Origin: an uncultured Candidatus Saccharibacteria bacterium | GTDB taxonomy: Bacteria > Patescibacteriota > Saccharimonadia > Saccharimonadales > Saccharimonadaceae | Direction: 5' to 3' | DNA length: 34,903 bases | Assembly: GCA_964629705.1 (NCBI GenBank) | Contig: CAZVTE010000001.1 | Location: 1 to 34,903, forward strand | Shown: piece by piece, positions 30 through 34,903 of the stretch | How the letters are laid out: every line of letters begins with the position of its first letter | Position numbering within the stretch: position 1 is the first letter of the stretch | Program-made: the position numbers and the translations under genes | Notes under the pieces: model-generated | The model's database searches: none | The model's input: the letters and a program-made list of their open reading frames with translations, nothing else | Told to the model about the DNA's origin: nothing

Positions 30-510
30 GCACACCGCTCGTTAAGGAGTGTTTTTGTTCCATCGGGGCTTCAATATTCGCTTGATTGAAGTTCCGTAGA
101 GTAAAAACGACTGCGGGAATCCCTAAGTTTAGTATTATTAAAAATTCGGTAGGTAAAGCATAATGATTCGCATTCAACATTTTTTAGAAAAACTAGAATG
201 CAGCTGCAGTCCTATGAAGTCGGCCTATTATTTGAGTTTTGGAGGTCATGACAGACGGGGTTGCAGCTGCAGGATAGATTACTACTCGGACAGTGGCACT
301 GTGTTTCTTAAGTCATATTTTTGCATCATAACGTCATTGGACTTCCTTAATCCATGCACTTTTAACCCACGTCAATTTTAGATACATAGCACTATTTCGC
401 AGTGCCACTATCCGAGTGGTAATAACTCAAGTAGACCATGCTGTTAGCGACATCTAGTTCATACTCTGCAACGGTTTTAGAAATCTTTTTGGTGTCGCTA
501 GTTGTATGGT
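30..510 (+). ncRNA. Structured non-coding leader of the early operon
   Basis: Hairpins 64-96, 199-271, 278-423 (26-bp stem) and 435-510, most with G-U pairs that work on the + strand; no convincing ORF. Confidence 0.6.
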
Positions 511-3238: not shown

Positions 3239-3328
3239 GCTGGTTTAATTCGTTAAAGTAGACGAACAAGTTTGTAAAACTTGTATCCTTTGAGATTCGA
3301 GTGGGTGCGATTCCCTCAACCAGCACCA
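3239..3328 (+). tRNA. tRNA-Tyr(GTA), atypical D and T loops
   Basis: Acceptor GCTGGTT/AACCAGC, A73, CCA; anticodon stem CAAGT/ACTTG with loop TTGTAAA; long variable arm. Confidence 0.75.
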
Positions 3329-3333
3329 ATATG

Positions 3334-3408
3334 GGGCGTCTAGTTTAGCTGGAAAGAACAGCTGTTAGCGCGACAGCAGATGCCGGTTCAAAGCCGGCGG
3401 CGCCCCCC
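3334..3408 (+). tRNA. tRNA-like gene, anticodon GCG (nominally Arg), non-canonical
   Basis: Acceptor GGGCGTC/GGCGCCC; stem GCTGT/ACAGC with loop TAGCGCG; T arm GCCGG-TTCAAAG-CCGGC. Confidence 0.7.
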
Positions 3409-3480
3409 TAAAAAAGTCCTCATACCGAGGTCGCGATAAGTATGAGTCCATATCTAGTCCTAGGCTAGACATGTCCATGT

Positions 3481-3557
3481 GGTGGGTATAGTCCAATGGT
3501 TAAGACACTAGTTTGTGGCACTAGAGATGCCAGTTCAATTCTGGCTACCCTACCCCA
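3481..3557 (+). tRNA. tRNA-His(GTG)
   Basis: G-1/C73, anticodon stem CTAGT/ACTAG with loop TTGTGGC, T arm, CCA; one bulged T in the acceptor stem. Confidence 0.85.
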
Positions 3558-3560
3558 TGA

Positions 3561-3637
3561 TCAAGAGTAGGCAAATTGGTAAAGCCACTAACCTTTGAAG
3601 TTAGAGTTTGTTGGCTCGAATCCAACTCCCGAAGCCA
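3561..3637 (+). tRNA. tRNA-Gln(TTG) with poorly paired acceptor stem (possible pseudo-tRNA)
   Basis: D arm, stem CTAAC/GTTAG with loop CTTTGAA, T arm and G-CCA intact; TCAAGAG/TCCCGAA mismatched. Confidence 0.7.
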
Positions 3638-26215: not shown

Positions 26216-26245
26216 ACAATAATCGTCTATAAGGACAGCACGCAA
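26216..26245 (-). promoter_or_regulatory. Late-type promoter copy 5: TTGCGT-GCTGTCCTTA(N8)-TATTGT
   Basis: Shared motif on the minus strand, 18-bp spacer. Confidence 0.75.
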
Positions 26246-26253
26246 GTTTTTTG

Positions 26254-31445: not shown

Positions 31446-31880
31446 CTAGCTACTTTTGTGTCTAGCGCTAGATGATCTAATTTTTTCTATAATAGGTGCG
31501 TTCAATATGTCTTTTTCGCTCCATAAAGCTTTAGATATACTATGTACTACTGCAATGATTTCTACAAACATAGCTGTGCCAATTATATCTAAAGTACCAT
31601 CACTGAGAACATCTATATTCATAGTAACCTTAAATGCTATTTTAAAAAACACCAAAACGATAAATAAAACCACTACATCTTCAGTTAATCTCAGCACAAA
31701 CTTAAGAACTTTATCTCTTTGGCTACTCCTTTGTTTCAATATCTTCATCACCTCGTCGCTTACGGACGGATCAGGCGCTTGAATCTCTGCCTGCGGTGAT
31801 TCTTCAGTATTATATTCTGATTCAGTAAAAAGAGTACGGTAAAATGCGCTCAAATCCTCTTCTAGTTCTGTTTCATCCAT
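31446..31880 (-). CDS. Two-TM membrane protein
   Basis: Acidic N-terminus, two hydrophobic helices; overlaps the ImmA-like gene. Confidence 0.8.
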   Translation of the reverse strand: MDETELEEDLSAFYRTLFTESEYNTEESPQAEIQAPDPSVSDEVMKILKQRSSQRDKVLKFVLRLTEDVVVLFIVLVFFKIAFKVTMNIDVLSDGTLDIIGTAMFVEIIAVVHSISKALWSEKDILNAPIIEKIRSSSARHKSS

Positions 31881-32368
31881 CTTACTCTATTCCTGACCGC
31901 TATAGTTGACACACCAAAGTACTTGGCTACTAAAGATTCATTATCTAAGAGTCTATATATCCTCCTAAATAATTCTTTGGGCATTAAAAGAGATGCAGCA
32001 AAATAGTTAGCTTCAGTTTCTTCTATCGACCCCTTGGAGTCATTATATGTAAAAAAGTCCAACCTAAACTTATCCTGGTTTGGGTGTAAAACAAAATGTC
32101 CGAATTCATGAGCTAGCGTAAAAGTTTTTCTCGCTGGAGATAAATCTTCGTTAATGAATATTCTTGCCTGGCCATCTTCATAAGAAATAGCTCCATTGAT
32201 TTTATGACGATTTTCCTGGAAGTCGAAATCATACAGCCCAATATTATCATAAGCAGTAATAATATCTTTGAGTCCATTTTCCGGATAAGTCATATCAACG
32301 TAATCTAAGATGTTACTAATTGTATCATCTATCTCATGCTGCCTATCAATAGTAAGCTTTCCTCTCAT
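31862..32368 (-). CDS. ImmA/IrrE-family metallopeptidase (DUF955)
   Basis: RKTFTLAHEFGHFVLH, EETEANYFAASLLMP, AKYFGVS..AVRNR. Confidence 0.93.
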   Translation of the reverse strand: MRGKLTIDRQHEIDDTISNILDYVDMTYPENGLKDIITAYDNIGLYDFDFQENRHKINGAISYEDGQARIFINEDLSPARKTFTLAHEFGHFVLHPNQDKFRLDFFTYNDSKGSIEETEANYFAASLLMPKELFRRIYRLLDNESLVAKYFGVSTIAVRNRVRWMKQN

Positions 32369-32460: not shown

Positions 32461-32489
32461 TTGATTTTATACGTCCATGGACGTATAAT
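32461..32489 (+). promoter_or_regulatory. Promoter TTGATT-17-TATAAT overlapped by a perfect 22-bp palindrome
   Basis: TTATACGTCCATGGACGTATAA at 32467-32488. Confidence 0.85.
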
Positions 32490-32544
32490 GATAATAAGAA
32501 CACGGAACATTTACAAATAAAACAAGCCAGGAGAAAGGAAGCGT

Positions 32545-32607
32545 ATGAAACAGTTAAAAACAATTTTCATACCAAAAAGAAGAGCCTCCAAACGGAAGCG
32601 CTTCTAA
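32545..32607 (+). CDS. Possible leader peptide MKQLKTIFIPKRRASKRKRF
   Basis: AAAGGA RBS in a structured leader. Confidence 0.4.
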   Translation: MKQLKTIFIPKRRASKRKRF

Positions 32608-32795
32608 TAATTATCTAAAACAATAATACCAAATCCTAAAGGAAAGGTCAATAGGTCGACCGTGTTCTTTTCCCCGGCTTTTTTAAAAAAGAGGATTATA
32701 AAATGAACGTAACGCTAAAATCTAACGAAGAATCTGGAAGATACAGCTGGGCGGAGCAAATGCTAATATAAAAGCTCATTAGAGGAGAACAACAA

Positions 32796-33188
32796 ATGTT
32801 AAGTGATGAACAAATTAGAATTATCGTCAATCAATTCGTGAAAATGGGTATGAAATTAGATTTCACCGGTCAAGGTCTGGAAATTGCCCTGTTCAGAAAT
32901 GACGACAGTTGGGACTTGCAAACGATTGAGCCGAGGTCTCCGAAACTCAAAGATGCGGAGTTACATTTTAGATTTCCGGATGATTTGCCAGAAGATAACC
33001 TAGATGCCGCGATTGAATTGGCTGGAATCTTGTCAATCAGACTGCACAAATACGCAAACAATAAGAAAGCCAATGCCGGAAAGACGCCAGAACAGCGTAA
33101 AGCTGCCGCCAAGAAAGCCATTGAAGCACGTTGGACAAAATACCGTGCAGAAAAAGCAAAAGCGGCGGAAAATGGTCTTGACAAATAG
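32796..33188 (+). CDS. Hypothetical protein with basic C-terminal TPEQRKAAAKKAIEARW motif (possible nucleic-acid binding)
   Basis: GAGGAG RBS; 130 aa. Confidence 0.8.
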   Translation: MLSDEQIRIIVNQFVKMGMKLDFTGQGLEIALFRNDDSWDLQTIEPRSPKLKDAELHFRFPDDLPEDNLDAAIELAGILSIRLHKYANNKKANAGKTPEQRKAAAKKAIEARWTKYRAEKAKAAENGLDK

Positions 33189-33206
33189 CTTCTGGTTTGA
33201 TACAAT
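33178..33206 (+). promoter_or_regulatory. Strong sigma70-type promoter TTGACA-17-(TG)TACAAT
   Basis: Near-consensus; predicted +1 about 33213. Confidence 0.85.
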
Positions 33207-33212
33207 AAAAAT

Positions 33213-33263
33213 AATCAAGCGAATATTGAAGCCCCGTCCCCTCTTTGAGGGTTGGGGCTTTTT
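33213..33263 (+). ncRNA. Putative ~50-nt terminated small RNA / attenuator leader
   Basis: Promoter, single-stranded 5' end, terminator AAGCCCC...GGGGCTT-TTT; 24-nt complement to 64-87. Confidence 0.65.
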
Positions 33264-33401
33264 CATAGTCTCAAAACAGGTACAAATACTCATAGGTTAG
33301 CAAAACGCTCGTTTGCTAGCTTATGAGTCACAAAATATTAACCGCTAGATTCTGCAACGAGCGGGCAGGATTTTGGTGCTAAAATTTACAACGGAGGTAA
33401 T

Positions 33402-33740
33402 ATGGGAAAAGTACAGGGATTCAATGAACTCATTGACAATGAAAGATTCCTTAAGGAATCTCCTTCAATGACAATGTCAATGAAGAGGGTTTACGGAGCG
33501 CGAGAAATTCCACTGGCGGAAGACGAAGTGGATGAACAGGCTGATTTACTCGTTGAGATGTTCGGAGCTAGAGACAGCAAAGGATTGTACTGTGACGCAG
33601 TGCGCTATTTAACTAAGGCGTTTCTTAACGAAAAGGCTAATTACGCCCTACAAAAGGGGCGCAATCCCGCTGCTTGTTTCGGTGCTATCGTTTACCGTCA
33701 ACTCCGCAAAGCTGGAGTGTACCCGAAACACGCCGTCTAG
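33402..33740 (+). CDS. Putative replication initiation/helicase-loader-like protein
   Basis: GGAGG RBS; ANYALQKGRNPAACFGAIV resembles DnaD/DnaB_C-type helices; internal iteron-like repeats. Confidence 0.45.
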   Translation: MGKVQGFNELIDNERFLKESPSMTMSMKRVYGAREIPLAEDEVDEQADLLVEMFGARDSKGLYCDAVRYLTKAFLNEKANYALQKGRNPAACFGAIVYRQLRKAGVYPKHAV

Positions 33741-33817
33741 CGTATTATCTCACGGATACGTTATACTATTACTCTTCCCTATCTATTATTAACTTAATGG
33801 GTGGGAGGAGTTTTTGT

Positions 33818-34723
33818 ATGCCATACAGAATTGAAAAATATATCAAAAACAACGATTTGCCAATCTGCTCACAGCTAATTAGATACTTTGATTATTGTCA
33901 ATTTGATTGCAACTTCACGAAAGACACAATGCGAGGAAAAACCTTATCTATTAACCATTTCGTTAAATGGTCAGAAATCGAAGATATTAACAATTTAACG
34001 ACTCGAATGGTACTGGACTATATAACCAATCAAGTTAAAGATGGTTTGATGCCTAGAACCATTAATAACCGCACTAAGCATCTTAAGGCGATGGTTAACT
34101 ATTTCAGAGATTATGAAGATATGGATATTCCTAACTTTCAAGAACGAAAGATTAAAAGACAGCATGAAGAAACGCCTTACAAGCGTGCGTTTTCAAGGGA
34201 AGCGGTATGCAAGGCGCTGCATTTTGCCGACCGTGAACCTTGGCTAATGATTAAGCTTTGCTTTGATTGTGGGCTAAGAATTCAAGAGCTTCAAAAGCTG
34301 AGATTAAGAGATATTCATGGGGACAAAGTCTCAATCCTCGGAAAGGGCAGAAAAAGGCGTCAAATCAATTTGTCCCACGAAGTCATTGTGAGATTAAATG
34401 ATTTCATTAAAAGGGAAAATGTAACCGATTACGTCTGGAAAAGCAAAACTAAACCAAACGTTCCAAAAACCACCGAGACAATCAGAAACATGATGCGCGC
34501 CCCATTCCAGTCCGCGGGCGTAGCAAATTTCTGTCCACATGAATTAAGATACTCATTCGCAACGGATTTGAAAAGACTCGGCGCATCAACTAGAAGTATT
34601 CAGCAAGGCTTAGGGCATTCATCAGAAAAGATCACAGAACACTACCTAAAAGACCTCGATGACGAAACCCTCAACGAATTGTACAAGCTCAAATATTCTG
34701 CTGACGAGCCAGAACTGTACTAA
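33818..34723 (+). CDS. int: Tyrosine recombinase/integrase
   Basis: CGLRIQE, GKGRKRR, HELRYSF, LGHSS, TEHY catalytic set; GGAGGAG RBS before ATG 33818. Confidence 0.95.
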   Translation: MPYRIEKYIKNNDLPICSQLIRYFDYCQFDCNFTKDTMRGKTLSINHFVKWSEIEDINNLTTRMVLDYITNQVKDGLMPRTINNRTKHLKAMVNYFRDYEDMDIPNFQERKIKRQHEETPYKRAFSREAVCKALHFADREPWLMIKLCFDCGLRIQELQKLRLRDIHGDKVSILGKGRKRRQINLSHEVIVRLNDFIKRENVTDYVWKSKTKPNVPKTTETIRNMMRAPFQSAGVANFCPHELRYSFATDLKRLGASTRSIQQGLGHSSEKITEHYLKDLDDETLNELYKLKYSADEPELY

Positions 34724-34773: not shown

Positions 34774-34802
34774 TTGACAGCGGGAAGAAAATTTGCTAAA
34801 AT
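34774..34802 (+). promoter_or_regulatory. Strong promoter TTGACA-17-(TG)TAAAAT firing across the terminal repeat
   Basis: Near-consensus with an A-rich UP region. Confidence 0.85.
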
Positions 34803-34884
34803 AGAAATATCAGCGAAACCACGGTTTGCAGAGATGGTTATTTAAGATAGTTGCATTATATGGTGCGCATCTGATTCTTACAGA

Positions 34885-34903
34885 CACCACACGGGTGTCT
34901 TAA
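34885..34903. repeat. Right terminal direct repeat (putative att core)
   Basis: Identical to 1-19; lies in the dyad AGACAC-CACACGG-GTGTCT. Confidence 0.9.

Follow-up and report, generated by a model that had tools for sequence, protein, structure and literature searches.

Why should a temperate phage carry two distant stretches of perfectly complementary sequence, one at the start of a predicted short terminated RNA and the other in a hairpin of its early leader? The question arises from a window of 34,903 nt (the whole stretch of DNA analyzed), which is the entire contig C1 of a 1.11-Mb genome assembly and has a 19-nt direct repeat at its ends. The window encodes terminase, portal, capsid/protease, tape measure, endolysin, and tyrosine integrase, and is an integrating (temperate) Saccharibacteria phage. 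The answer favored here, with a probability of roughly 60%, is a two-RNA switch: according to structural modeling, the early-leader hairpin would pair in trans with the RNA beginning at 33213, open its terminator, and switch on the downstream gene. The sequences, their covariation, their geometry, and the gene order are direct observations.

The complementary pair and its setting

Sequence comparison bore out an earlier note on this DNA, in which positions 33213–33236 had been described as the exact reverse complement of 64–87. The 24-nt match has no extension at either end and exceeds every other exact long-range inverted repeat in the window, the runner-up being 18 nt; the longest inverted match in 60 genomes simulated with an order-3 Markov model was 13–17 nt. 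The elements of the two loci are listed below, with the 33213 unit termed the sensor and the leader hairpin the trigger.

33178–33206 (+): near-consensus sigma-70 promoter with an extended −10 (TTGACA-17-TACAAT with TG, 11/12), driving the sensor unit
33213–33236 (+): specificity segment, comprising the unpaired 5′ tail (33213–33227) and the terminator 5′ arm (33228–33236)
33228–33263 (+): intrinsic-terminator-like hairpin and U5 tract, the predicted end of an RNA of ~50 nt
33267–33274 (+): lock segment, predicted to pair with the freed terminator 3′ arm (33252–33259) and loop out the U tract
33280–33395 (+): conserved two-hairpin 5′ UTR with complementary loop hexamers (33306–33311 and 33358–33363)
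33402–33740 (+): ORF P0002 (112 aa), the predicted target of the switch
33818–34723 (+): tyrosine integrase, with its SD in the 3′ arm of a hairpin (33778–33805) conserved in the window's clade
34774–34802 (+): early promoter, pointing across att to the leader and located at attR once integrated
34885–34903 (no strand): att core, the 19-nt terminal repeat identical to 1–19
36–59 (+): terminator t1, directly upstream of the trigger hairpin
64–96 (+): trigger hairpin A, with a 12-bp stem containing G-U pairs and a 9-nt loop, within an outer stem (51–110)
94–116 (+): alternative hairpin B (94–99 with 111–116), predicted to form when hairpin A is opened

The anatomy described previously was also confirmed. 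The 24-mer begins 6 nt past the −10 box, at the predicted +1 of a promoter whose position and form are the same in all 16 phages analyzed. It leads into an intrinsic terminator hairpin (33228–33261; −22.7 kcal/mol, z −3.4, with 3/200 shuffles equally good) and five U residues (33259–33263); a consensus terminator scan did not call the 33228–33263 hairpin. The proposed toehold geometry is reproduced by folding, where the leader loop (76–84) is unpaired with probabilities of 0.66–1.0 and the first 15 nt of the RNA with 0.75–1.0, and the duplex would consume the whole 5′ arm of the terminator, since 33228–33236 lies inside the 24-mer. Hairpin A is present in both the MFE and centroid structures, and its stem is paired in 44 of 45 cells across five aligned leaders, with covariation not above that of shuffles. 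In the 5′ UTR beyond the terminator, the loop hexamers possibly form a kissing pair; both are altered together in the relative G1026.

The absence of a CI-like repressor, another element of the earlier description, also held: searches for HTH_3 and S24 found no match on the window contig. The same families gave no match on the five prophage contigs tested, a search that divergent folds could escape, and antirepressor families had no match among the 55 window ORFs. Rfam matches in the window were tRNAs alone at E values up to 1, as were those in 11 related loci at the gathering score.

Several other features of the phage were recorded. Four tRNA genes (Tyr, Arg, His, and Gln) lie in the early region at 3239–3637. 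An IrrE/ImmA-like M78 peptidase and a 144-aa membrane-like partner occupy 31446–32368 (−) without an adjacent HTH protein, and this slot is filled by unrelated genes in the relatives L170 and L115. A 19-nt motif (core TGCTGTCCTTA) occurs in five plus-strand copies (6903, 9706, 15528, 18399, and 26253) upstream of middle and late genes and in one inverted copy (26229–26246, −) ahead of leftward genes; these are probably late promoters or activator sites. A second small-RNA unit is situated upstream of P0001 at 32461–32651 and has a promoter overlapped by a perfect 22-bp palindrome (32467–32488), a 20-aa leader ORF (32545–32607), and an antisense promoter (32651–32623) with a terminator (32599–32584). 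L115 and L170 carry a similar module in inverted orientation, and host contig C157 has a fragment.

Conservation and co-variation among relatives

Related loci were fetched with an integrase profile, and the regions upstream of int were scanned up to 40 kb. Both partners were found in 27 phages or prophages of the family, with about 15 unrelated pairing sequences, and at least 10 further copies of two sequence types occur among the matches listed. L170 (50% integrase identity) shows the same anatomy with a different, perfect 22-nt pair, and prophage G459 has yet another perfect pair, of 24 nt, immediately within its left end. In 7 of 15 regions containing the unit, the best antisense match lies ~30–36 kb upstream, on the same strand and just behind a small terminator. 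Of the remaining eight, seven have ≤22 kb of upstream sequence, and the partner in the eighth (G1060) came from a pattern search. Another set of loci contributed five further pairs. Pattern searches located partners on other contigs for G1072, G978, G999, G016, G847, G410, and G380, and on the same contig for G1057. The partners are ~1.75 kb apart on the circle and 26–36 kb apart in prophages.

Not every locus yielded a pair. G1114 and G031 gave no partner, and the region needed for G1100, L171, G872, and G888 was outside the sequence searched. The unit was not seen in G370 or in 15 of the 20 weaker integrase loci, which were chosen by integrase only and passed through a promoter filter. When 30–200 was used in a DNA similarity search against 401 family genomes, its own genome was the sole meaningful match. 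Pattern scans of viral contigs gave 0 matches with an over-strict pattern and L170's contig alone with two others.

Three types of candidate were rejected. One further order-wide pattern match (401 genomes) was a promoter running into an ORF with no terminator. Triple inverted repeats located 1.6–4.2 kb upstream of int were considered as a two-target RNA; in L179, the one locus on which their rejection rests, they are at the coding ends of an apparent invertible tail-gene segment. Such repeats (15–37 nt) surround tail-region genes at L179:6317–8117 and in many loci among L039–L201, consistent with a shufflon-like invertible segment. Several of the top integrase matches have long flanking inverted repeats and no unit. 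The repeats flanking the integrases of L116, L117, L118, L120, L125, and L215–L224 (60–210 nt) duplicate a gene start, which suggests invertible promoter or gene cassettes in the host genus.

The sequences of relatives, proposed in the earlier note as a check for compensatory change, support pairing. Among four close phages (the window, L170, G459, and G1072), all 49 pairwise differences in an ungapped comparison preserve Watson–Crick pairing, a count in which events are not independent; because the phages are related, this and the other counts overstate independence. Across 16 phages, cognate duplexes have a mean of −33.3 kcal/mol versus −15.0 (SD 4.7) for non-cognate combinations, and the cognate partner is the best in 14 of 16 rows; both exceptions are twins of the same specificity. 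Watson–Crick matches number 115/128 at positions +1 to +8 and 27/96, near chance, at −6 to −1. Pairing starts at +1 in 12 phages, at +2 in two, and at +3 in one, and in G1026 it runs from +1 across a bulge; the locator tried +1 to +4 only, with upstream positions scored separately and the G1026 target set by hand. Because differences are compensated and pairing stops at the predicted +1, the conserved element likely acts as RNA. Collectively, it is very probable that the two loci form a real, family-wide, co-evolving RNA pair.

Direction of control and the controlled gene

The earlier note had interpreted the ~50-nt RNA as a repressor of the early leader comparable to P4 CI or P1 C4. Cofolding points to the reverse direction, with the early-leader hairpin as the likely trigger and the 33213 RNA as the likely sensor. 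In the window, the modeled probability of the terminator stem falls from 1.00 for the sensor alone to 0.00 with the cognate leader, and the same behavior is predicted in 5/5 phages of the terminator type (0.60–1.00 to 0.00–0.07). A side remark in the same note, that pairing could anti-terminate the initiator/integrase unit, is supported at the level of cofolding. Complementarity covering a linear 5′ region as well as the terminator's 5′ half, as in small transcription activating RNAs (STARs), was found in the window, L170, G459, G1026, G1072, G016, G978, and G999. In the anti-SD type, the probability that the SD is held by an upstream strand decreases from 0.66–1.00 to 0.00–0.25 with the cognate hairpin in 10 of 11 phages. 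The controlling helix is therefore flipped by the cognate leader in 15 of 16 models, with G924 the exception (0.98 to 0.92), and with non-cognate hairpins the median probability stays near its unbound value. The models also contain less orderly cases: non-cognate leaders switched L188, G1033, G939, and G940 in 4–6 of 15 combinations, the anti-SD helix of G847 stays closed in the MFE, and freed SDs frequently re-pair downstream. The readout for the anti-SD type was the probability of SD pairing upstream, which replaced plain SD accessibility, a noisy measure with artefactual pairing. The folding is equilibrium modeling, and antitermination needs pairing within a short co-transcriptional window.

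The direction is also indicated by sequences beyond the terminator. The 5′ strand of the leader matches 8–11 bp downstream of the first hairpin of the unit in 10 of 12 phages outside the window's clade, nine identified by script and G1039 by its 11-bp match, which the script had put in the wrong segment. These matches co-vary, with 14 of 5,040 permutations reaching the observed score when one phage per lineage was used. By default, the matched segment covers the SD of the next gene, and in L179 it is the 5′ arm of a second terminator. Since the short terminated RNA lacks this segment, which in most relatives is exclusive to the read-through transcript, pairing there argues for the leader as activator and against the repressor interpretation. 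The lock segment leads to a similar view: it is present solely in the read-through transcript, so its helix (33267–33274) matters only for read-through, and L170, G459, G1026, and G1072 have equivalents in which the sequence differs and pairing is kept.

One-way repression is the strongest of the competing explanations and is considered unlikely. In that scheme, the ~50-nt RNA would open hairpin A and shut down or destabilize the early transcript, with RNase III cutting the 22–24-bp duplex as one possible route. The host genome encodes RNase III, the terminated RNA is still predicted to bind the leader favorably (about −21 kcal/mol), an immunity factor would be well served by a strong constitutive promoter, and the pairing sequences have diversified in the manner of immunity groups. 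Masking the target in leaders gives hairpin B in some phages, and this hairpin is kept in 5/5 aligned leaders of the window's clade (30/30 cells paired, with one two-sided change). However, hairpin B is not conserved in the G1026 group, its covariation does not surpass that of shuffles (97/500 score as high), and masking in models of 16 leaders revealed no visible new terminator or SD block. A search of 61 genomes of the host genus found Rho in none of them, and repression leaves the lock segment and the pairing past the first hairpin without explanation. Repression by the terminated RNA is compatible with trans-activation as the sink arm of that model; on the modeled binding, it is plausible that the terminated RNA is a sink or immunity factor. 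The mutual antagonism suggested in the earlier note is possible in this form, with structural support in the models for the activating direction alone.

The identity of the controlled gene bears on what the switch would do. P0002 has no Pfam, PHROG, family, or PDB-sequence match. It is a predicted four-helix domain whose best fold matches (Z 5.8) are unrelated helical domains; a weak fold match was obtained with DnaD-like 2zc2 (Z 3.9, rmsd 3.7, 62 residues aligned). In the 11 anti-SD phages, the controlled ORF is 91–99 aa, with TGTGGAAAA boxes and direct repeats behind it, as judged by eye. Six of these ORFs were aligned and folded and form a winged-helix family. Their top fold matches are 4pta, a plasmid "MDR initiator" (Z 8.0, rmsd 3.6, 89 aligned), and the DnaB N terminus (Z 7.9), scores close to those of unrelated winged helices and generic regulators (LexA, CRP), and they have weak PHROG initiator matches (E 0.0025). 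The controlled ORF is accordingly a likely replication gene, on fold modeling, in the winged-helix (anti-SD) clade, and P0002 is possibly a replication-related gene in the window's clade.

The same trans-activation could instead serve lysogeny, with the trigger turning on P0002 as a regulator together with integrase, in the manner of lambda CII. Int follows P0002 on the same strand, P0002 is without a supported function, the winged-helix folds are nearly tied with LexA, CRP, and other regulators, and a unit that is on after infection and off after integration would have the timing of an integrase. Against this, a terminator-like hairpin and an origin-like repeat region separate the controlled ORF from int in the winged-helix clade (by eye), and the two best folds are replication proteins; a lysogeny unit is regarded as improbable. 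A DNA-level role, with the inverted 24-mers serving as inversion or gene-conversion sites or as two operators of one protein, is very improbable despite the perfect inverted identity in the window's clade, the integrase between the sites, and the invertible segments elsewhere in related phages: the G-U pairs, bulges, and matches divided into blocks that many relatives show speak against DNA sites, complementarity ceases where transcription is predicted to begin, one phage's sequence bears no relation to another's, and contigs from 4/4 runs of one study, possibly the source of this DNA, contained no inversion joint (contigs drop rare forms).

Integration state, the proposed switch, and known systems

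On the circular genome, the order is sensor promoter (33178), sensor unit, P0002, int, early promoter (34774), att, t1, hairpin A, and early genes, and the early promoter arrangement (34774–34802) is the same in relatives. Because the early promoter and the leader lie on opposite sides of att, integration moves hairpin A and its promoter apart. The attP junction and alternative flanks both turn up in the contigs of four runs from a single study, so the phage exists in circular as well as integrated form; identity with host contig C123 reaches back from att to 34849. Terminator t1 is present in 16/16 phages (−5.7 to −16.6 kcal/mol, the window's being the weakest), 13–21 nt upstream of the trigger arm. 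None of the 16 leaders has a consensus promoter in the 400 nt after t1, and with the trigger downstream of t1 in all of them an extra antitermination step is needed; an upstream segment that anti-terminates t1 was not seen in five nascent-transcript folds. The position of t1 makes sense as an insulator at attL, which the circular phage must nonetheless pass.

Further observations concern the leader and att. Motifs TTAACAATT and CTTTAACA, candidate boxA-like antitermination sites, recur past hairpin A or just after the early promoter (~125–148 in the window, and in the L036 and L188 leaders). Long-range stems in the early leader (278–423 and ~430–515 in the window, and L170:11285–11445) retain structure and not sequence, as judged by eye, and are possible RNase III sites. 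The att core belongs to a host repeat family, ACACC-N5-GGTGT (34884–34903 and 1–19 in the window), present on 11 host contigs (C2, C10, C42, C45, C74, C102, C107, C111, C117, C123, and C155). Several of these regions are close to short variable ORFs, which suggests an integron-like or shuffling system. In G1026:C1, L188, and G902:C7, the att core appears by eye to resemble a −10 box (TGnTATAAT), so that integration would bring a host promoter to a position ahead of t1. The same assembly (G000) also has the trigger hairpin intact, complete with the exact 24-mer and preceded in each case by a separate hairpin, at C113:3135–3252 and C151:2074–2161, and there is a weaker copy at C93:1094–1184. Flanks of the extra copies were found in contigs of runs X1, X2, and X4 and not X3, the C113 flank in X1 and X2 only. 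Such copies may be left over from related elements, or may be triggers or decoys carried by the host.

For the switch itself, we infer transcription, pairing in vivo, the direction of control, the function of P0002, and the sink role as follows. By default, the strong promoter at 33178 would produce the ~50-nt terminated RNA, and P0002, perhaps together with int, would stay off. Once the phage has infected or excised, transcription from the early promoter at 34774 would read through attP, and transcripts passing t1 would carry hairpin A, making the circular phage genome the predicted main source of trigger. The loop of hairpin A would dock on the free 5′ tail of the 33213 RNA, and strand exchange would then capture the 5′ arm of the terminator, with the freed 3′ arm locked by 33267–33274. 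In other clades, the trigger would bridge over the first hairpin and strip away the anti-SD strand or a second terminator's 5′ arm. Stray trigger would likely be absorbed by the abundant terminated RNA, which would set a threshold and possibly confer sequence-specific superinfection immunity. The prophage would stay quiet without a CI protein because integration cuts the leader from its promoter and t1 insulates it from host read-through. Extension of this scheme to the whole family, as lysis/lysogeny control without a protein repressor by a natural, evolvable STAR/toehold switch active only with an intact attP, in which the terminated RNA acts as a sink setting the threshold and the immunity groups, is a tentative proposal whose odds fall somewhat short of even.

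Comparisons with known systems draw on excerpts of the cited articles. Synthetic STARs act in trans by binding an unstructured linear region together with a terminator's 5′ half to permit elongation, and their specificity is provided by a variable linear region on a constant terminator scaffold (PMC5648800). The window's clade shows the same recognition of a linear region and terminator 5′ half, and an orthogonal variable region on a constant scaffold is evident from the cognate/non-cognate matrix and the fully compensated differences. STARs are engineered, whereas here the activator is a hairpin within a natural phage mRNA leader; the phage system also differs in having lock helices in both RNAs, an anti-SD version in sister clades, and production tied to integration state. 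In the Salmonella prophage Gifsy-1, transcription from the IsrK promoter yields a short terminated RNA as well as a read-through mRNA that is translationally silent and is activated in trans by pairing with the short isoform of the same transcript (PMC4825925). The combination of a short terminated RNA and a read-through mRNA activated in trans is shared, but here the activator is a separate locus across att and the effect in the window's clade is predicted to be on termination. Release of an occluded SD by trans pairing, as in IsrK and anti-antisense regulation, is predicted by cofolding in 10 of the 11 anti-SD relatives and is not the window's own form. RNAIII and Rli27 are anti-antisense activator sRNAs that free an occluded ribosome-binding site by pairing in trans (PMC8383071). 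They are stand-alone host sRNAs, in contrast to an activator embedded in an early mRNA leader, and the phage pairs are distinguished by near-perfect, one-to-one complementarity that is diversified between phages.

Phage P4 maintains lysogeny without a CI protein, and its immunity is Rho-dependent. P4 CI RNA arises by processing of the transcript under its own control; it pairs with two targets, one on either side, and brings about termination (PMC4825925). The likeness consists of a small RNA that pairs with a phage leader and controls genes for lytic growth. Here, separate promoters lie on either side of int and att, the window has a single target, activation is predicted, and Rho was not found in the host genus; the pair is not a member of the P4 CI family. 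In C4 RNA, pairing specificity covaries between P1 and P7. The antisense RNA C4 represses an antirepressor, atop the C1 protein repressor (PMC8201110). A phage RNA with a pairing sequence inside an immunity region is common to both systems, but the present loci gave no C4-type Rfam match and no repressor–antirepressor pair was found. The excerpted parts of a 2025 review of phage sRNAs (PMC12197685) describe no such system. Literature searches of titles and the beginnings of abstracts, with subscription journals and supplements outside their scope, found no report of such a system, no natural phage case of a STAR, and nothing on antisense RNA in Saccharibacteria prophages.

The switch can be examined in E. 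coli or cell-free systems with no need to culture the host. If the model is correct, it would represent a natural counterpart of STARs and toehold switches, with about 15 evolved, largely orthogonal trigger–sensor pairs in transcriptional and translational versions, and the temperate phages of these reduced-genome bacteria, in which Rho was not found, would remain dormant without a CI repressor.
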